The notes under the pieces are model-generated. The model made no database searches, was not told the origin of the DNA, and saw nothing but the letters and a program-made list of their open reading frames with translations. The position numbers were made by a program, and so were the translations under genes. Shown piece by piece: positions 22,908-56,923 of a stretch of 64,000 nt of DNA (position 1 is its first letter; every line of letters begins with the position of its first letter). Source of the DNA: Patescibacteria group bacterium (GTDB taxonomy: Bacteria; Patescibacteriota; Patescibacteriia; UM-FILTER-42-10); NCBI GenBank assembly GCA_041666485.1, contig JBAYGW010000003.1, forward strand, positions 16,415 through 80,414. Direction: 5' to 3'.

Positions 22908-24497
22908 CTAGTGCCAGAACATCCGGCGATCGGTAAAGAGCATCGCGATGCCCAGTTTGTCCGCGGACCTGATTGAATCCTGGTCGCGAATTGAACCGCC
23001 CTGCTGGACGATCGTCTTGACGCCGAACGTGTCCGCCAGGCGCACGCAGTCGTCAAACGGGAAGAAGCTGTCGGACACCAGCACAGCATGGTGCAGATCC
23101 ATATTCTGCGCCTCCATGTTGTTCATGGCCTGCTCCAGAGCAAGCCGTGCCGACTTGATCCGGCTGGTCTGGCCGTTGCCGATGCCGATCGTCTGCCCGT
23201 TCCAGACCACGATGACCGAGTTGGACTTGACGTGCTTTGACACATTGCAGCCGAAACTGATATCCGACCAGTAGCGGTCCTTGACACCGAGCTTGGTGAC
23301 GCACCGGAACGACCTGCAGTCAAACAGCTCGGTGTCCATCAGCTGGACCACCATGCCGCCGGTCACCGGCTTGAAGTTCAGCGTGCCGAACGGCATGCTG
23401 CAGGAAAGCTCCCCACCCAGTTTGAACAGCGGGGTCTCTGCCCTGGCGCGCTTCTTGGTGATGTGTTCCATCGCCTCCGGCGAAAAATCCAGCGCGACGA
23501 TCGCGTCCACCTTCTGCACGCAGATGGTTTCAGCGACTTCCTCCGTCACCTGGAAGTTGAGTACCACCACCCCGCCGAAAGCCGATTCCGGATCGCACGC
23601 CAGTGCGTTCTGGAAAGCCTTCAGCGGACTGAAGCTGTCCATCGCCACTCCGCACGGCGTACCATGCTTGATGATCGCGACTGCGAATTCCGGGGACAGG
23701 TCGCGGACCGTCTCAATGCCGGCATTGATATCCAGCACAGTGGTGGCCGAGAGCGGCTTGCCCCAGATCTGCTTGGCGTTTGCCGCGGTGTAGCAGTTCA
23801 GACCCGGCAGTTCGTAGAACGCACCCGGCTGATGCGGATTCTCACCGTAGCGCAGATCACACTTCTTCTGCAGACGCTGAACCATCCGATCCGGGAAGCT
23901 GGGGAACTCAAGGCGTTCAGCCAGCCAGTCGGAGATCGTGGCGTCATACCACGCAGTGTGAAGAAACGCCTTGTAAGCCAGTTGCAGACGTTCCAGCGCG
24001 TTGAACCCGACATCTTCCGAAAGACACCGAATCACAAAGCCGTACTGCTCTGGTGAAGTGACCACCAGCACATGGCTGTGATTCTTCGCGGCCGCGCGGA
24101 TCAGTGCCACGCCGCCGATATCAATCTGCTCAATCGCGTCCCGAAATGCCACGGTCCGATCAGCCACCGTCTCTTCAAACGGATACAGGTTGACCACGAC
24201 CATGTCAAACGGGTAGATGCTGTGATCAAACAGCTCCTGCATGTGCGCGTCGCTGTCCTGATCCGCCAGGATCCCGCCGTGGATCTTCGGATGCAGAGTC
24301 TTCACCCTGCCACCCAGAATTTCCGGGAAACCGGTCACCTCCTCTACCGTTCGCACGGGAATTCCGGCTTCCACCAGGTGTCTGGACGTTCCGCCGGAAG
24401 ATACAATCTCCCAGCCATGTTCAAACAGCACGGTGGCAAGCTCAACAATGCCGCGCTTGTCGGACACGCTGATCAGAGCGCGCTGATTTGCTCGCAT
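22908..24497 (-). CDS. purH: bifunctional AICAR transformylase / IMP cyclohydrolase
   Basis: ALISVSDK, GGRVKTLHPKIHGGIL, GENPHQ and QQGGSIRD motifs. Start set at MRANQ, preceded by AAAGGAGC. Strongly G+C-rich relative to its flanks. Confidence 0.93.
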   Translation of the reverse strand: MRANQRALISVSDKRGIVELATVLFEHGWEIVSSGGTSRHLVEAGIPVRTVEEVTGFPEILGGRVKTLHPKIHGGILADQDSDAHMQELFDHSIYPFDMVVVNLYPFEETVADRTVAFRDAIEQIDIGGVALIRAAAKNHSHVLVVTSPEQYGFVIRCLSEDVGFNALERLQLAYKAFLHTAWYDATISDWLAERLEFPSFPDRMVQRLQKKCDLRYGENPHQPGAFYELPGLNCYTAANAKQIWGKPLSATTVLDINAGIETVRDLSPEFAVAIIKHGTPCGVAMDSFSPLKAFQNALACDPESAFGGVVVLNFQVTEEVAETICVQKVDAIVALDFSPEAMEHITKKRARAETPLFKLGGELSCSMPFGTLNFKPVTGGMVVQLMDTELFDCRSFRCVTKLGVKDRYWSDISFGCNVSKHVKSNSVIVVWNGQTIGIGNGQTSRIKSARLALEQAMNNMEAQNMDLHHAVLVSDSFFPFDDCVRLADTFGVKTIVQQGGSIRDQDSIRSADKLGIAMLFTDRRMFWH

Positions 24498-24563
24498 TTC
24501 TGCTCCTTTCGTGGCAAACCGTGAAGCTTTCACCGCAAACAACCGTTTGGGAAACGGTTTTTT

Positions 24564-34912: not shown

Positions 34913-36415
34913 TTAGGTAATTGTAAAAATATTGATTTTTTCAATCGCTTTCTTTGCCAGTTCAATTCTTTCCCTGCGATTCGCGTAAAAAGTGAACAGT
35001 TTACTACCCTTTTTAACTTCCTGTCCAACCCTTTTGTGGAGGTAAATGCCGGCCAATTTTTCTGAAGGCGCACCTAGTGTTCTCGCAATTTCGTCAATTG
35101 CTTTATTATCTACTGCGGTTATTTTACCTGACTTTGCGGAAAGTACACGGTAATACTCACCGCCTAAGACCACTGCGTCGGAATCAATTGTAGAATTACC
35201 ACCCTGTTCCTTGATCACCACCTGCATTTTTTTCCACGCCTTACCTGATACCAGAATTTCTTCCGCAACTGATTTTCCCTTACCGCGCGCCACCTGCCCC
35301 GATATTTCCAGAAGTTTTCCCGCCAAAACCAGTGCTTTATCTTCTAAATCTTTCGGCCTGTTACTTTTTTGCTGCAATACCCGGAGAACATCGCGTGATT
35401 CCAAGGCCGGTCCAACCCCTCTGCCGACCGGTTCATTGGCAAAAATTTTTTCAACATGTATTTTAATCCCAAAACGCTTGCCAAGATACATAAACTTTTT
35501 TTCAATCTCATTCGCGGTCTTCATATCCGGAATTTTTGAGGTGATTCCGACCGGCATATCAATCACCAGATACTTGATACCCATGGCAACTTTTTTCGCC
35601 ATAATACTTACCACCATTTTATCAAACGGTTCCAAGGAGAGTGGTTTTGTCACCTGAATAATCAAATCATCCGCCGGAGCAATATTTAAACCACCGCCCC
35701 AGATCATACATACTTTGTTTTTCATCACCATTTGTTTGATTCTGGTCATGGAAAATCCGACCGGAGCCAATACTTCCATAGTATCCGCCGTACCCGACGG
35801 TGAAGTGATCGCCCGGGAGGAGGTTTTTGGAATATATAAACCAAAGGCTGCAACAATCGGAACAACAATCATAGTTGTCCTATTGCCGGCCAAACCGCCG
35901 ACGGAATGTTTATCAACTACAATTTTATTTCCGGAAAATCTCAACTGCTCGCCGGTTTCCGCAATTGATTTTGTAAGATAATACAGCTCCAGTGGAGTAT
36001 AAGGCCTTGCAAAACTAGACGCGACAAAATATGATGTTTCCACCGGTCCGAGTCTGCGGCTGACAATATCTGCTATGATTGAATGAATTTCCTCATAACT
36101 TAAAACACCGCCCTTAATTTTCTTATTAATTGCTTTTACTGATTCCGGACGTTCAACGATTGAAACCTCAATGATTTGATCTTTCTTCATCGGGTACTTC
36201 GCCCAGATCTCTTCAAAAAAACCGATCTCCCCCGGCTTTATTTCATTTTCCGCCAGGTTTACAGTAGCAAATATTCTTTTACGGTTATGCCAGGACAAAC
36301 CGATATGGTCATTAGCATGAATACCAAAATTGAGGGCTTCTTTTTCATTTAAAAGCACCTTCGGCATCTCGCCGGTTTCAATATCAATTTTTTTTGCCCT
36401 TAAATAAAATGCCAT
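34913..36415 (-). CDS. deoA: AMP phosphorylase (thymidine phosphorylase family, archaeal DeoA type)
   Basis: 500-aa ORF with the N-terminal extension typical of AMPpase and a DKHSVGG phosphate-binding motif. Sits in an operon context with RuBisCO and R15P isomerase. Confidence 0.85.
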   Translation of the reverse strand: MAFYLRAKKIDIETGEMPKVLLNEKEALNFGIHANDHIGLSWHNRKRIFATVNLAENEIKPGEIGFFEEIWAKYPMKKDQIIEVSIVERPESVKAINKKIKGGVLSYEEIHSIIADIVSRRLGPVETSYFVASSFARPYTPLELYYLTKSIAETGEQLRFSGNKIVVDKHSVGGLAGNRTTMIVVPIVAAFGLYIPKTSSRAITSPSGTADTMEVLAPVGFSMTRIKQMVMKNKVCMIWGGGLNIAPADDLIIQVTKPLSLEPFDKMVVSIMAKKVAMGIKYLVIDMPVGITSKIPDMKTANEIEKKFMYLGKRFGIKIHVEKIFANEPVGRGVGPALESRDVLRVLQQKSNRPKDLEDKALVLAGKLLEISGQVARGKGKSVAEEILVSGKAWKKMQVVIKEQGGNSTIDSDAVVLGGEYYRVLSAKSGKITAVDNKAIDEIARTLGAPSEKLAGIYLHKRVGQEVKKGSKLFTFYANRRERIELAKKAIEKINIFTIT

Positions 36416-36420
36416 GATTA

Positions 36421-36475
36421 GTAATTCGTAATTAGCAATTGGTAATTAGTAATTAGCAACGTGTAATTCGCTGTA
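36421..36475. repeat. AATTAC/GTAATT heptamer array (candidate operator) upstream of the AMP phosphorylase gene
   Basis: On the minus strand: TAATTACTAATTACCAATTGCTAATTACGAATTAC, 5 nt before the ATG. Five AATTAC units in about 55 nt. Confidence 0.6.
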
Positions 36476-36516
36476 TAATGCCGTATGTACAGGTCTGATA
36501 TTAAGATGTAAAAAAA

Positions 36517-37761
36517 TTACTTATCCCCATCCTTCCAATGTCTGAGCGCAACGGCTAACTCTCCGTGGTCTTTGGCATACTCATCCAGATCAATCCCCGC
36601 AAGCGTCGCGTCTAATGCCTGTTTAACGGCTGTCGCTCCGGCAAATGTTCCTTCCGGATGACCATGGATACCCCCGCCAAAATTCAGAATTACATCTTTG
36701 CCGAATATTTTATAAAGCGAAGGTATTAAATTGGGATACAACCCGCCTGATGCGATCGGGAATGTTGATTTAATATTAAACCACTTACTGCGCAGAAAAT
36801 CATCTATTTCAACTACATCACTTTTTCCACCCTCCATTTTCCCCACAACCGTGCCGGTGTGCAGCTGATCAATACCTGCCAGACGCGCCAATTTTGACAG
36901 CACTAGCATACTCATTCCATGTTTTTGGTTCTTAGTGAACATAGAATGCCCAGCTCTGTGACCGTGAATTATAAGACCTAAATCCCGTTTGCGTAACATT
37001 TGCACATTATCAAGTCCTACGGAAACCATGTCAATCATTACCACTTCACCGCCGAGGCTTTTGACCAGCTGCGCTCTTTTGATCATTTCATCCGGTTGTG
37101 CTGTTACATTAAACACGCACAATTTTTTGCAGCCTGTTTCTTTTTCCGCTTTATCCCTCATTTTAAGAGTAAGCCGGACTCGCTGATCAAATCGGCTGAA
37201 AGAAAGGTCGGTTAAATTTTCATCATCTTTGACCAGATCAATTCCACCGATAAAGACCTGGTAAGACAGTGTGGCATGCTGCAGAGCGGACAAGCCCAGC
37301 TTTGGTTTCAGAATTGATCCCAGTATGGGCCGGTCATAAATTCCCATAATGCGCCTGATCCCTTTTATGCCGAAACGCGGGCCCTGAAAACTTTCAACAT
37401 ATTCTTTCGGAAAGTCTACATCCACTAATCTGAGATTCCTTATGATCTTCATACTAAAAACATTACCCGCCACACCGGATAAAAATTGCGGGATGCTCCC
37501 CTTTTCAAAAAGCGCCAAGGGATAGGCAACTTTGAATGTATGGGCTTTTTTATCAATATCATATGCTTTCGCGCTCAGCTTCGTGAATGTTGCTTTGGAT
37601 AATGTGGCAAGATCCGTCCAGGTTCCAATAGAAGATTCCGCCGCCACTCCGCCCGCCGCATCGTTAAAATCAACATTGGTATCCATATAGAATGAAGCGA
37701 CAAGTTCTGTTTTCTTCGGCTGATAGCTTTTTTTTACAAATTTTTGGTAAAATTTATTCAT
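36517..37761 (-). CDS. rbcL: ribulose-1,5-bisphosphate carboxylase large subunit, form III-like (II/III)
   Basis: GGIDLVKDDENL (carbamylated Lys motif) and NFGGGIHGHPEG. Start set at MNKFYQ, 1 nt after the upstream stop. Confidence 0.9.
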   Translation of the reverse strand: MNKFYQKFVKKSYQPKKTELVASFYMDTNVDFNDAAGGVAAESSIGTWTDLATLSKATFTKLSAKAYDIDKKAHTFKVAYPLALFEKGSIPQFLSGVAGNVFSMKIIRNLRLVDVDFPKEYVESFQGPRFGIKGIRRIMGIYDRPILGSILKPKLGLSALQHATLSYQVFIGGIDLVKDDENLTDLSFSRFDQRVRLTLKMRDKAEKETGCKKLCVFNVTAQPDEMIKRAQLVKSLGGEVVMIDMVSVGLDNVQMLRKRDLGLIIHGHRAGHSMFTKNQKHGMSMLVLSKLARLAGIDQLHTGTVVGKMEGGKSDVVEIDDFLRSKWFNIKSTFPIASGGLYPNLIPSLYKIFGKDVILNFGGGIHGHPEGTFAGATAVKQALDATLAGIDLDEYAKDHGELAVALRHWKDGDK

Positions 37762-37762
37762 A

Positions 37763-38719
37763 TTATAGATTCTTGAAAATCCATGGATAATGCTTTTCAA
37801 CTAAATAAGCAACATCACGTGGCTTAATAATACCAAATTCACAAATTATTCCTTTGATGAATTTAGATGGAATGCGGTCAAAAGCGAAATTGATTATTTT
37901 TAATCCTTTCGGACCGTTCGGCCAGATTTCTTTGCGATCCCGCAATTCAATGCCAACATATTTGCTGATAAATGTTTCCGGATCGGTTTTTAAAAGTGAA
38001 GCGGCGACATAAACCGGAATTTTTTCGTGGTTAGCAACCTGGGCGATTCCGTAGCTACCGACTTTGTTGATCACTGAGCCGCCGGATGTAACCGAGTCTG
38101 CACCCAAAAAAGCAATATCCACCATCACTTCCCGGCCACTGGTTCTGCTGATCAGAAAAGCGGCAGCTGAATCAGCCACCATTGTGACGTCAATCTTTCG
38201 CTTTAATAGATTCTTAGCTGTTATTCGCCCCTGGAAAAGCGGGCGGGTTTCTGTACAAAAAACATGCGGCATCTTTGAATGTTTATTAGCCTCAGTAATA
38301 ATATGCTCCACAGTTGAAGAATGGCAGTGCGTGAATACTTTCATATCTTGCTTAATCAGTTTTGCGCCGGCTACGGCAATTTTTTGATCATGATATTTCA
38401 GCAAAACTAAAAAAAGATGGCAAGCTTTTTTTAGCAACTTCGCCAACTCAGGCACGGATAAACCTTCTTTATTATTCTCTAAATAATGTAAAACGAATTG
38501 GACTGAATTACGGGACAGCGGTTCGGTCGGCCTTGCTTCCGCCAAGGCTTTGCCACTTTTACGAATAGCAGAAAGAAACTGGCTTTTATTTTTTTTTAGC
38601 AATTGATTACTTTCCAACTGCAACGCGTCCAAAATTACTTTGGTTATCTGCGTTGCACCCTGTATTTCTAAAGATGCTATTTTTGTTACTGTTTTTTGTA
38701 CTGCGCTATTCATAAACAC
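37763..38719 (-). CDS. ribose-1,5-bisphosphate isomerase (eIF-2B alpha/beta/delta family, E2b2-type)
   Basis: 318-aa eIF-2B-family ORF (TRPLFQGR, GADSV motifs) directly upstream of RuBisCO. Confidence 0.8.
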   Translation of the reverse strand: MFMNSAVQKTVTKIASLEIQGATQITKVILDALQLESNQLLKKNKSQFLSAIRKSGKALAEARPTEPLSRNSVQFVLHYLENNKEGLSVPELAKLLKKACHLFLVLLKYHDQKIAVAGAKLIKQDMKVFTHCHSSTVEHIITEANKHSKMPHVFCTETRPLFQGRITAKNLLKRKIDVTMVADSAAAFLISRTSGREVMVDIAFLGADSVTSGGSVINKVGSYGIAQVANHEKIPVYVAASLLKTDPETFISKYVGIELRDRKEIWPNGPKGLKIINFAFDRIPSKFIKGIICEFGIIKPRDVAYLVEKHYPWIFKNL

Positions 38720-44754: not shown

Positions 44755-44783
44755 TTGACACCCGTCAAATTTGAGCCTAAACT
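44755..44783 (+). promoter_or_regulatory. sigma70-like promoter of the BCCP-like cassette
   Basis: TTGACA, a 17-nt spacer, then TAAACT. Confidence 0.5.
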
Positions 44784-44844
44784 CTATATGGCCTGAAAAG
44801 CCATTTGTTCATTGTCACCGGCTCAACACCAGAAAGGAGCAGAC

Positions 44845-45267
44845 ATGGACTTGAAAAAAGTCCGGCAAATAGTCAGCCTGCTCCAAGAGCATCCAACTAT
44901 TGCCGAGCTGGAAGTAAGGAACACGATGGGATTTGAAAAAATCCTGATCCGGAGGTCTCCTCCGATCATCCCCGAGAGTCAGACACAAGCAACAGTTGTA
45001 CTGGCACGACCGACCTTTTTCATCACCGCTCCGGATGTCGGATGGTACCTGGCCGCTGCCGATCTGGAGAAAAATCCGCCGCTTACCAAGGGCAGTTTTG
45101 TTTCCCAGGGCGAAATCGTGGGTTACATTGAAAACCACGGAATTCGGAATGAAGTCGTTGCGGAATTCGCCGGGACAGTCATGCATGTACATGCTGAAAC
45201 CGGTAAACCGGTGGAGTACGACCAGAAGCTGTACACAATCTTACTTTCCGAACCTTCCAGATGCTAA
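44845..45267 (+). CDS. biotin carboxyl carrier protein-like protein lacking the biotinyl-lysine
   Basis: AccB-like N-terminus (MDLKKVRQIVSLLQEH..IAELEV) and a C-terminal lipoyl/biotinyl fold (GEIVGYIE-NHGI-RNEVVAEFAGTV..GKPVEYDQKLY). NHGI replaces the AMKM motif. AAAGGAGC SD; G+C-enriched. Confidence 0.6.
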   Translation: MDLKKVRQIVSLLQEHPTIAELEVRNTMGFEKILIRRSPPIIPESQTQATVVLARPTFFITAPDVGWYLAAADLEKNPPLTKGSFVSQGEIVGYIENHGIRNEVVAEFAGTVMHVHAETGKPVEYDQKLYTILLSEPSRC

Positions 45268-45283
45268 TTACCTGCTCATTTCG

Positions 45284-45310
45284 TCAAGCGCAATGCTTGA
45301 TGTTTTTTTT
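45284..45310 (+). terminator. intrinsic terminator
   Basis: TCAAGC-GCAAT-GCTTGA hairpin followed by TGTTTTTTTT. Confidence 0.7.
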
Positions 45311-45364: not shown

Positions 45365-46486
45365 ATGATTAAAGCCATCATATTTGATTTCGGGAACGTT
45401 ATAGCCAGTTTTGACAATGGTTTATTTTTGAAAAAAATTTCCAAATATACCAGTAAATCTATTGACAAGTTGTATGAACTAATCTATAAAAAATCAAAAC
45501 TGCCAAGCCAATACGAACAGGGAAAAATTAACTCCGATGAATTTTACAACCAAGTTGTAAAACTATGTGATCTGAAAATCAGTCAGATACAATTTAGAGA
45601 CGCCTATACTCAGATATTCACACCGATTCCGGAAACAATTGAGCTGATTAATGCACTTAAGCCAAATTATAAGCTGGGGCTTTTATCCAGCACCAGCGAG
45701 TGGGATTTTGAATTTGGATTCAAACCGCTAATTGATGTGTCTATTTTTGATTCAATTACATTAACCTATCAGCTAGGAATTAAAAAACCGGATCCGAAAT
45801 TATTTCACGATGCTTTAAATAAACTGAGTGTTGCCCCAAACGAAACTGCCTATATTGATGATCTCCCGGAAACAATTGAAGTAGCCAATAATCTGGGTAT
45901 TCATGGAATATTATTTACCGGTAATGACACCCTGCAAGCATCACTGCATAAACTGGGGGTTGAAGTTAATAATACCTACCGCCCGAATTATGTGCAAAAA
46001 GTTACGATAGCTGACGAGAATGACAAAAAAATTGGATACAAATACCGGGATCAAATCACAGAGACAGATATTTTTCGGGCGACCGGCTTGTGGATTACCA
46101 ATTCAAAAGGCGAAATACTTTTAGCCCGAAGAGCACTGTCAAAAAAAATGCATCCGGGATTATGGAGTACCGCCGTTGCCGGAACAGTTGAAGAAGATGA
46201 AACATACGAACAAAATGTAATCAAAGAAGCTGAAGAGGAACTTGGTATCGTTGGCGAAACTTTTATTCCGTATGAAAAAACCAGAATCCGAGGAAAACAC
46301 AATTTCTTCATCCAATGGTACACTTTAGTCATAAATAAAAAAGCTGAGGAATTCATGTTGCAACCAGAGGAAGTGGTTGAAGTAAAATGGTTCAAAAAAT
46401 CCGAGCTAAAATTGTTGCTGAAAGAAAAACCGGAAATATTTACGTCTTCGCTGCCTCAGTGGGTATCTTTATTCCTGGCGAAATAG
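45365..46486 (+). CDS. HAD-superfamily hydrolase fused to a NUDIX (IDI-like) domain
   Basis: N-terminal IIFDFGNV (DxG-type HAD motif I) and a later YIDD. The C-terminal half carries GLWSTAVAGTVEEDETYEQNVIKEAEEELG. Confidence 0.75.
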   Translation: MIKAIIFDFGNVIASFDNGLFLKKISKYTSKSIDKLYELIYKKSKLPSQYEQGKINSDEFYNQVVKLCDLKISQIQFRDAYTQIFTPIPETIELINALKPNYKLGLLSSTSEWDFEFGFKPLIDVSIFDSITLTYQLGIKKPDPKLFHDALNKLSVAPNETAYIDDLPETIEVANNLGIHGILFTGNDTLQASLHKLGVEVNNTYRPNYVQKVTIADENDKKIGYKYRDQITETDIFRATGLWITNSKGEILLARRALSKKMHPGLWSTAVAGTVEEDETYEQNVIKEAEEELGIVGETFIPYEKTRIRGKHNFFIQWYTLVINKKAEEFMLQPEEVVEVKWFKKSELKLLLKEKPEIFTSSLPQWVSLFLAK

Positions 46487-47614: not shown

Positions 47615-48250
47615 CTATTTTTTCTTTTTTGCCTTCGGTTTAGCTTTTACCGCCTTTATTACCTTCTTCTTAACTTCTGCTTTTACAGAAACCTTCTTCT
47701 TTATTTCGGGCTTAGAAACAGGTTTTACTTTTTCTTGTAATACTTCTGGCTCTGCTGCCGATAACTGCCGCAATATTTTATCTAATTTTTCATTAATTGT
47801 TTTTAACTGGCCGTCAAATCGCCCGCTATTGGCATCGCTTGGTTTTCGGTCAGCACTTCTCGGATCCTTCCCAAAACAGCTGGAACACAATACGGGCTTT
47901 TCTCCGGTAGGACGAAAAGGAACTTCACAGCTCTGCCCGCACTTGGAACAGGTAGCACTGAACATTTTTTTCTCATAAAAATTCGGCTTGCCGAAATCCC
48001 TGCCAAAAGAACGACCGGAACTTGATTTATCCTTTGCTTTGAAGCAGTTACTGCAATAAACCGGCTTGTTTCCCGTCGGTTTAAACGGAACTTCACAGCT
48101 TTGCCCGCATTCCGAACAGACAGCTTTATGCATTACATGATGGTCCGAGTCACCTCCCCGGTTATAACCGCCGCTCATAGATTCTCTGCGGTCAAAACTA
48201 GGACCGTTTTTTCGGTCAAATGATTTTCCGTTTCTGTTAAAGTTTTTCAT
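47615..48250 (-). CDS. CxxC-x17-CxxC domain protein (two zinc-ribbon repeats, Lys-rich tail)
   Basis: CSECGQSCEVPFKPTGNKPVYCSNC and CSKCGQSCEVPFRPTGEKPVLCSSC repeats, and a KKK-rich C-terminus. Confidence 0.7.
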   Translation of the reverse strand: MKNFNRNGKSFDRKNGPSFDRRESMSGGYNRGGDSDHHVMHKAVCSECGQSCEVPFKPTGNKPVYCSNCFKAKDKSSSGRSFGRDFGKPNFYEKKMFSATCSKCGQSCEVPFRPTGEKPVLCSSCFGKDPRSADRKPSDANSGRFDGQLKTINEKLDKILRQLSAAEPEVLQEKVKPVSKPEIKKKVSVKAEVKKKVIKAVKAKPKAKKKK

Positions 48251-55653: not shown

Positions 55654-55810
55654 ACCGTCTTATTGTACCAAATATCAATGTTTCTGGCGACTTGTCATTA
55701 CAGTCACGTAGCAACCCTGACTTGCCAGAGTAAATGAAATATGGTAAAAACAAAACTGTGCCCATCTTCAGGGCGCAAATGACCAAAACCCGTTTTTGGG
55801 AGGTATTGGT

Positions 55811-56923
55811 ATGGACCAACGATTTGTCGATCTGGCGAGAGTCATGGTCGGCCATTCCACAAGGGTCTCAAAGGACGATATCGTCATCGTCAAGAGCACG
55901 GAGGTAGTGCCGCCCGACATGATCTTCGCGGTGATCCAGACCGTGCGCGAAGCGGGGGGCTCCGTGATCCCCTGGCGCTACGATCCGCGCATTGACTTCG
56001 AGGCATTCAGGGGTGGCACCGCTCACCAGCTGCGTGCCTGGGGCGCCGGCCAGTTTACCCAACTGGCTGCCGCCAACTGCTTCATTGAGTTCCGGCCGTT
56101 CAGTAACCAGCTCGACGGCAACGACGTGCCGGCAGCGGACATGCAGCGCCACGGCGAGGTGTTCGTTCCGCTGACGGTTGAACAGCGCGTGGAACGCACC
56201 CGCTGGGTGCTGACCCGCTGGCCGACGCCGGCCAACGCCCAGTTGGCCGGGATGTCCACGACGCAGTTCGAAGAGTTCTTCTTCAAGGCATGCCTCGCCG
56301 ACTACGGCGCCATGGCCAAGGCCGTGAAGCCGCTCGTCGCCCTGATGGAGCGGACCGACCAGGTCCAGATCCAAGGGCCGGGCGACACCGATCTCACTTT
56401 CAGCATCAAGGGAATTCCGATCATCGCCTGTACCGGATCGCACAACATCCCCGACGGCGAAGTGTTCACGGCGCCGGTTCGCGATTCCATGAACGGCGTG
56501 ATCGCCTACAACACCCCCACGGTCAACTCCCGCGGCCAGCGGTTCACCAATCTCCGCTTCGTGGTCAAGGCGGGCAAGATCGTGGAGGCGACCTGCGAGA
56601 CGGGTGACCAGACGGCGCTGGACGCCTTCCTGGACACCGACGAGGGTGCCCGCTACTTCGGCGAATTCGCCCTCGGCATCAACAACTTCGTCACGGGTGT
56701 GATCGGCGAAACGCTGTTCGACGAGAAGGTCGGTGGAAGCCTCCACTTGACGCCCGGCCGGTGCTATGAGCAAGCGCCGAACGGGAACCAGTCGGCCAAC
56801 CACTGGGACATCGTCTGCGATCAGCGCGGGGCTTCCGGTGGTGGGGAGATCTACTTCGACGGCAAGCTGGTCCGCAGCAAAGGGCTTTTCATCCCGAAGA
56901 GCCTCCACGCGCTCAATCCCTGA
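55811..56923 (+). CDS. M29 family aminopeptidase (AmpS/PepS-like)
   Basis: 370-aa ORF; NIPDGEVFTAP and HWDIV motifs of thermophilic metalloprotease M29. GGGAGG SD. Strongly G+C-rich. Confidence 0.82.
   Translation: MDQRFVDLARVMVGHSTRVSKDDIVIVKSTEVVPPDMIFAVIQTVREAGGSVIPWRYDPRIDFEAFRGGTAHQLRAWGAGQFTQLAAANCFIEFRPFSNQLDGNDVPAADMQRHGEVFVPLTVEQRVERTRWVLTRWPTPANAQLAGMSTTQFEEFFFKACLADYGAMAKAVKPLVALMERTDQVQIQGPGDTDLTFSIKGIPIIACTGSHNIPDGEVFTAPVRDSMNGVIAYNTPTVNSRGQRFTNLRFVVKAGKIVEATCETGDQTALDAFLDTDEGARYFGEFALGINNFVTGVIGETLFDEKVGGSLHLTPGRCYEQAPNGNQSANHWDIVCDQRGASGGGEIYFDGKLVRSKGLFIPKSLHALNP

Follow-up and report, generated by a model that had tools for sequence, protein, structure and literature searches.

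A biotin carboxyl carrier protein homologue without its biotinyl lysine in Patescibacteria, and its possible role as a cofactor-less pseudo-carrier

What is left for a biotin carboxyl carrier protein (BCCP, AccB) to do once the lysine that carries the biotin has been lost, in a host where no carboxylase gene lies nearby? This question is raised by a short gene in a 64-kb stretch of DNA from a Patescibacteria group bacterium (the whole stretch is referred to below as the window), which an earlier reading of the sequence, here called the original prediction, had described as encoding a BCCP-like protein without its biotinylation site. The CPR/Patescibacteria are ultra-small bacteria thought to be unable to make lipids. 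To our knowledge, biotin-less BCCP-like pseudo-carriers have been characterised only in plants, as the BADC proteins, which control the committed step of fatty-acid synthesis, and literature searches found no description of a bacterial lysine-less BCCP or of a bacterial BADC counterpart. A pseudo-carrier encoded apart from the acc genes may point to a hidden AccC-type partner, and with it to residual carboxylase biology in the CPR; alternatively, it would represent a clean case in which a swinging-arm carrier domain has been turned into a binding module. Automatic annotation labels these proteins ‘biotin carboxyl carrier protein’ and would thereby wrongly credit such genomes with a carboxylase component.

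An AccB homologue lacking the biotinyl lysine

The product of 44845-45267 is almost certainly a non-biotinylatable homologue of AccB. The gene and the parts of its product are the following.

44845-45267, plus strand: coding sequence, 140 aa plus stop, for the non-biotinylatable AccB/BCCP homologue (homology; dN/dS 0.19-0.43)
44845-44958, plus strand: residues 1-38, AccB-type N-terminal segment, MDLKKVRQIVSLLQEHPTIAELEVRN..GF.KILIRRS, aligning with the E. coli AccB N-terminus
44959-45018, plus strand: residues 39-58, short variable linker rich in Pro, Ser and Gln (alignment, AF2)
45019-45246, plus strand: residues 59-134, flattened beta-barrel domain of the biotinyl/lipoyl type (PF00364, Foldseek)
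45043-45084, plus strand: residues 67-80, ‘thumb’ insertion, WYLAAADLEKNPPL, in ungapped alignment to E. coli FYRTPSPDAKAFI
45133-45144, plus strand: residues 97-100, N-H-G-I, a hairpin tip replacing A-M-K-M, with Gly99 at the biotinyl-lysine position (alignments)

The resemblance to AccB that the original prediction had seen by eye holds over the full length of the protein. A profile of the family aligns by hhalign with 30 lysine-bearing BCCPs from residues 1-138 to 1-155 (99.9%, E 2.6e-32), and this end-to-end alignment indicates a whole AccB with a shortened linker, more than a lone biotinyl domain. The N-terminal segment claimed earlier falls, as MDxxKV..L..E..I.ELE, inside the same alignment; by HMMER, residues 1-48 align to residues 1-45 of E. 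coli AccB, weakly when taken alone (11.8 bits), and the AF2 model has a low-confidence helix at residues 3-15. The C-terminal biotinyl/lipoyl domain, also part of the original prediction, passes the Pfam Biotin_lipoyl model (PF00364) with 31.8 bits against a gathering score of 22.1 (residues 60-132), a significant similarity to this fold. The AF2 model is weak overall (pLDDT 62.9), being usable in the C-domain (70-82) and poor elsewhere, and its best PDB matches by Foldseek are the BCCP biotinyl domains 9a87, 1bdo and 4hr7, with a target TM of 0.80-0.89. The protein is thus like AccB/BCCP (TIGR00531; E. coli; 1bdo, 4hr7) in its order of N-terminal segment (MDxxKI..LI.L..E..I.ELE), linker and C-terminal biotinyl barrel with thumb, at 24.7% identity to E. 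coli AccB across residues 1-155. It is unlike AccB in its linker, which has no invariant column and a pLDDT below 50 and is about 20 residues shorter than in E. coli, and in its score against the NCBIfam BCCP model TIGR00531 (54.4 bits), which lies under the equivalog cut-off of 115.2. Further differences are that accC is not adjacent, that conservation is stronger at the N-terminus than in the C-domain, and that the residues serving the cofactor have been replaced.

In every alignment the E-A-M-K-M motif of BCCPs corresponds to E96-N97-H98-G99-I100. The replacement of the lysine tetrapeptide by NHGI, as originally claimed, was borne out by an alignment to AccB run as a check, which puts Gly99 at the lysine position, and biotinylation at the canonical site is accordingly impossible, again as claimed. 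The substitution had also been worded as ‘K-to-H/G’, of which one part stands: the lysine position is occupied by Gly, or by Arg in one subfamily, and the His stands where BCCPs have the Met before the lysine, a change confined to a single subfamily. The thumb has kept its length, while Tyr92, Pro95 and Pro97 of E. coli are replaced by Leu69, Ala72 and Leu74. Tyr92 is nearly invariant among the 30 true BCCPs, and mutation of thumb Tyr/Pro residues impairs E. coli BCCP according to the passage on this point in PMC11926652, which cites Cronan 2001. Inside the main subfamily (see below) the thumb stretch is invariant, and the family as a whole keeps a thumb motif, LA[AT].D.E..P.L, that is unlike that of BCCPs. 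The Cys that precedes the IE motif has become Gly. A conserved lysine in the C-domain was looked for in the family alignment and not found, which excludes a shifted attachment site. A lipoyl-lysine is likewise absent from the hairpin tip, the best matches being BCCPs and the lipoyl enzymes (sucB and similar) reaching only E ~1e-3. With Gly in place of Lys, the Met gone and the thumb Tyr/Pro residues replaced, shuttling of CO2 by this protein is impossible.

Transcription unit and predicted mRNA helix

Around the coding sequence the following elements were identified.

44755-44783, plus strand: sigma-70-type promoter from a consensus scan, with -35 TTGACA at 44755-44760, a 17-nt spacer and -10 TAAACT at 44778-44783
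44817-44844, plus strand: conserved 5' UTR block, ACCGGCTCAACACC..AAAGGAGCAGAC, with the Shine-Dalgarno GGAG at 44836-44839 (orthologue alignment)
44836-44884, plus strand: predicted mRNA helix sequestering the Shine-Dalgarno sequence and start codon (RNAalifold, five loci)
45282-45310, plus strand: intrinsic terminator from a scan, stem-loop CGTCAAGC-GCAAT-GCTTGATG followed by T8 (stem 45282-45302)

With the start ATG at 44845 and the stop codon ending at 45267, the range 44755-45310 given by the original prediction spans one complete transcription unit from promoter through terminator, and all elements of the promoter-SD-ORF-terminator arrangement were located, and four orthologous loci have kept them. 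Across five orthologous loci ATTGACA and TAAACTC do not vary, and the intergenic DNA around them is variable. The 5' UTR block, in which GGAG stands six bases 5' of the ATG, is invariant or nearly so in the window and in loci L001, L005, L006 and L007, despite a dS above 2 with L007. The stem and T-run of the terminator are kept in five of five loci and the next gene's own TATAAT comes after them, so that the BCCP-like gene is monocistronic; an operon with the downstream HAD-Nudix gene was dropped on the same grounds. A further UTR hairpin (44788-44804), terminator-like by scan, was discarded, being conserved in neither L001 nor L007. No known RNA element was found in the region by Rfam at the gathering threshold, and the idea of a defence-system or phage protein was dropped after PADLOC and PHROGs gave no match.

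The predicted helix pairs GGAGCAG (44836-44842) with CUGCUCC (44878-44884, codons S11-Q14), and an inner hairpin spans codons 2-7. In RNAalifold the pairs form in all five loci, every pair being invariant and covariation hence zero. The single-sequence fold has -21.3 kcal/mol (z = -3.13), and codons 1-35 show higher conservation at synonymous sites (9 of 13 against 8 of 29; Fisher p = 0.018). Such a pattern of folding and conservation suggests translational control of the BCCP-like gene by a helix that would sequester the Shine-Dalgarno sequence and would probably damp translation. The conservation of the N-terminal segment may also be owed partly to mRNA structure instead of protein.

The elevated G+C content remarked on in the original prediction is evident in the gene, at 0.506 (GC3 0.553) against 0.40 in the flanks, and likewise in its orthologues. 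A G+C of 0.50-0.53 and a GC3 of 0.52-0.585, against flanks of 0.39-0.41, are common to four orthologues at dS 0.5-1.0, the excess being weaker in the L007 orthologue (0.45 against 0.375). The raised values may stem from an old transfer from a GC-richer donor, incompletely ameliorated, or from selection at the nucleotide level. Two other genes of the window also stand out in composition from its average of 0.405: purH (AICARFT/IMPCHase; 22908-24542, minus strand), with a G+C of 0.59 and a GC3 of 0.77, and a gene for an M29 aminopeptidase (55796-56923, plus strand), with a G+C of 0.635, a GC3 of 0.85 and a long antisense ORF that is spurious. In both cases this looks like horizontal acquisition.

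Family, neighbourhood and selection

A word-index search returned five close clusters with 61-99% identity (P0001-P0005, the main subfamily), one of them named Patescibacteria. Among 1.84 billion representatives, searched exhaustively by HMM, only two clusters came out below 1e-30, the main family and P0014, which originates from Patescibacteria MAGs, and then ordinary BCCPs; a large CPR-wide lysine-less family was thus not found. In a broader profile search the lysine is present in 112 of 112 further matches. A third subfamily came to light in locus L017 in a scan anchored on QueG. The family is tiny, with three subfamilies in one Patescibacteria clade, always beside queG. The search for homologues shows that the lysine is absent from every member and that the neighbourhoods are syntenic. 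The hairpin tips read x-H-G-[IL] in the main subfamily, L-R-I in P0014 (ALRI) and L-G-M in L017 (SLGM). As the lysine is missing from all three subfamilies and the tips differ, its loss goes back to the ancestor of the clade; the His belongs to one subfamily alone.

The shared gene order in all loci is the RuBisCO-AMP phosphorylase-isomerase cluster, guaA, guaB, a deaminase gene and queG on one side, followed by the BCCP-like gene and, beyond it, genes for Nudix or HAD proteins. In L007 the downstream gene consists of the Nudix part alone, and in L017 glyoxalase and SDR genes have taken its place, which also speaks against an operon. A functional link to queG was dropped, since a BCCP-like neighbour is lacking at all 78 of the more distant QueG loci; with the Nudix adjacency also broken in L017, we read the neighbourhood as inheritance within the clade and not as a functional link.

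Several neighbouring genes deserve a description of their own. The gene directly downstream (45365-46486, plus strand) encodes a HAD-IA phosphatase fused to a Nudix domain of the IDI/YfcD-like type; the fusion is recent, as L007 has the Nudix part only and L017 the HAD part only, the latter as two tandem HAD genes. At 34913-38719 (minus strand), three ORFs, of 500, 427 and 318 aa, correspond by synteny to the annotated AMP phosphorylase, form II/III RuBisCO and ribose-1,5-bisphosphate isomerase (IF-2B) of L001, L005 and L007. These three enzymes constitute a CO2-fixing nucleoside-salvage module typical of CPR and archaea, and in the window guaA and guaB adjoin the cluster. A gene at 47615-48250 (minus strand) encodes a 211-aa protein in which a CxxC-x17-CxxC zinc-ribbon unit (TIGR04272 / zf_Tbcl_2) occurs twice and the tail is rich in Lys; in the CPR-type locus L008 this domain is fused to a DUF87/TrwB ATPase.

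The ORF of the BCCP-like gene is intact in every genome sampled, and its orthologues show a dN/dS of 0.19-0.43 at a dS of up to 2.5. Together with the conserved expression signals, this purifying selection indicates that the gene is not a decaying relic, and the description of the carrier domain as ‘repurposed’ in the original prediction appears reasonable. The protein evolves faster than the neighbouring QueG, with identities of 65% against 79% and of 50% against 74%. Between subfamilies, identity is 66-74% in the 38 N-terminal residues, 42-45% in the C-domain and 22-25% in the linker. An N-terminal segment far more conserved than the C-domain fits a carrier role that has been lost and a docking role that has been retained.

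Lysine-less proteins also exist outside the family: among 162 sequences examined, a sample biased to such proteins because the query itself lacks the lysine, 17 have G, R, Q, N, S or M instead. These proteins (P0140, P0089, P0025, P0093, P0143 and others) share the BCCP architecture, at only 26-36% identity to the window protein, and several of them have G-Y/F ahead of the IE motif, as it does. The grouping of the lysine-less proteins in a neighbour-joining tree may be due to long-branch attraction. P0140, P0089 and P0025 lie in CPR-type contexts in which no acc gene was found nearby. In locus L011 (8001-9869), on a contig of 0.32 G+C that is not CPR-like, P0093 has its biotinyl lysine replaced by Arg (ETMRIF), and its gene occupies the canonical place of accB, with a full accC directly downstream; the two are possibly a bacterial BADC-like pair, or else belong to an acetyl-CoA carboxylase that uses another carrier. 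P0143 (L010, 8001-8612; protein cluster n=11) is a 203-aa protein in which Gly replaces the lysine (EAMGVM), encoded on a contig of 0.67 G+C. The usual gene order is efp-accB, and the P0143 gene indeed follows efp directly, with a GT9 glycosyltransferase gene next instead of accC. A lysine-containing relative, P0107, adjoins fabH, and its contig shares no gene with the window.

Possible roles of a carrier without cofactor

The absence of accA/B/C/D and fab genes from the window, stated in the original prediction, was confirmed by Pfam scans and tblastn, both of which came out empty. In the Pfam scans, which took in 30 additional ORFs with a minimum length of 183 aa, no match to a carboxylase, biotin-ligase or fab family turned up, and tblastn with E. 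coli AccA, AccC, AccD and BirA and a second AccC gave nothing at E<0.1 in 211 kb, that is, in the 64-kb window plus nine other CPR-type loci (~147 kb), which amounts to less than 20% of one ~1.2-Mb genome.

In AccB the N-terminal segment mediates both association with biotin carboxylase and self-association, and for the E. coli protein Choi-Rhee and Cronan reportedly found in 2003 that this segment is needed for the former. Given that the carrier role is lost, that selection persists and that the N-terminal segment is the most constrained part, a protein-binding pseudo-carrier is proposed. We tentatively favour a mechanism analogous to that of BADC, with an AccC-type partner, as a possible though far from assured reading. 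The protein would then be a non-catalytic subunit that acts through protein binding alone, with its AccB-type N-terminal segment as the binding part, and the most likely partner would be an ATP-grasp protein of the AccC type, with its gene at another place in the genome. Plant BADCs have 25-30% identity to BCCP, lack the AMKL motif and bind both BC and BCCP, the binding acting as an inhibitor or as a ‘glue’ (PMC11926652, PMC12706156). The window protein is similar to them in its identity to BCCP (about 25%; 24.7% to E. coli AccB), in its missing biotinylation motif and in being non-catalytic, and its proposed mode of action, binding without a cofactor, would by analogy be the same. The BADCs, on the other hand, are plastid proteins of plants and green algae that occur alongside BC, BCCP and CT, whereas the present protein has a CPR host and no carboxylase nearby. 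The nearest relatives found are bacterial BCCPs, and a loss of the lysine independent of that in BADC is more likely.

Several findings are consistent with a BADC-like role, namely the full-length AccB architecture, the lost biotin site, the selection, the conserved expression signals and the stronger conservation of the N-terminal segment between subfamilies. It also has precedents in the plant BADCs, in P0093 upstream of accC, and in a cultured CPR bacterium with accC and a few fab genes, although its fatty-acid pathway is incomplete (PMC12281837). Against it stand the lack of accC, accA, accD and birA in the 64-kb window and in the ~147 kb of other CPR-type loci, and the monocistronic nature of the gene, whose neighbours (queG, the deaminase gene, guaA/guaB and HAD-Nudix) are unrelated. 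CPR bacteria are moreover usually said to lack the ability to synthesise membrane lipids (PMC7242380), P0140, P0089 and P0025 are not adjacent to accC, and mRNA structure may explain part of the N-terminal conservation.

A rival reading is a carboxylase-independent exaptation, which we regard as rather doubtful. Here acetyl-CoA carboxylase and biotin metabolism would have been lost, and the N-terminal segment and the remodelled thumb face would bind to one another or to some unrelated partner, giving an adaptor or scaffold. Neither acc genes nor birA were found in any of the 211 kb of DNA examined, the gene is solitary and far from acc here and in three CPR-type lineages (P0140, P0089, P0025), CPR bacteria typically lack lipid synthesis (PMC7242380), and the thumb motif LA[AT].D.E..P.L is conserved in the family in a form that is not that of BCCPs. 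However, the absence of acc and birA is drawn from less than 20% of one genome, the most conserved part of the protein is precisely the AccB-type N-terminal segment, and the neighbourhood suggests no alternative partner, even the Nudix adjacency being lost in L017. Extended to the phylum, the same reasoning would have CPR/Patescibacteria without carboxylase and biotin metabolism repeatedly keeping the carrier as a cofactor-free adaptor, with the thumb face and the N-terminal segment as working surfaces and the SD-sequestering mRNA helix gating translation, a scenario that we consider somewhat unlikely.

The original prediction had suggested a regulator or decoy, for example for a partner biotin ligase or carboxylase. 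A decoy or regulator of the ligase would dock on BirA like apo-BCCP and be unmodifiable. The BCCP fold and the overall geometry of the hairpin are indeed kept, but E-A-M-K-M is changed at three of four variable positions and the tip reads NHGI, ALRI or SLGM according to subfamily. The hairpin recognised by the ligase is therefore not conserved between subfamilies (HG, LR, LG), which argues against a decoy, and birA was not found by tblastn in the 211 kb; a ligase decoy appears very improbable. Equally improbable is new chemistry at the hairpin tip, with His98-Gly99 as a phospho-acceptor, a metal ligand or a new modification site. H-G is invariant in P0001-P0005, the five clusters of the main subfamily; the sister subfamilies, however, have L-R and L-G and do not keep His116 either, and neither PTS EIIA nor other His-active families of hybrid-barrel type were matched. 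His98 was accordingly dropped as a functional centre. Also very improbable is a non-functional remnant or mis-called ORF, as might be read from the faster evolution relative to QueG and the TIGR00531 score under the equivalog cut-off, since the dN/dS of 0.19-0.43 holds at a dS of up to 2.5, the ORF is intact in all genomes sampled, and promoter, Shine-Dalgarno sequence and terminator are conserved.
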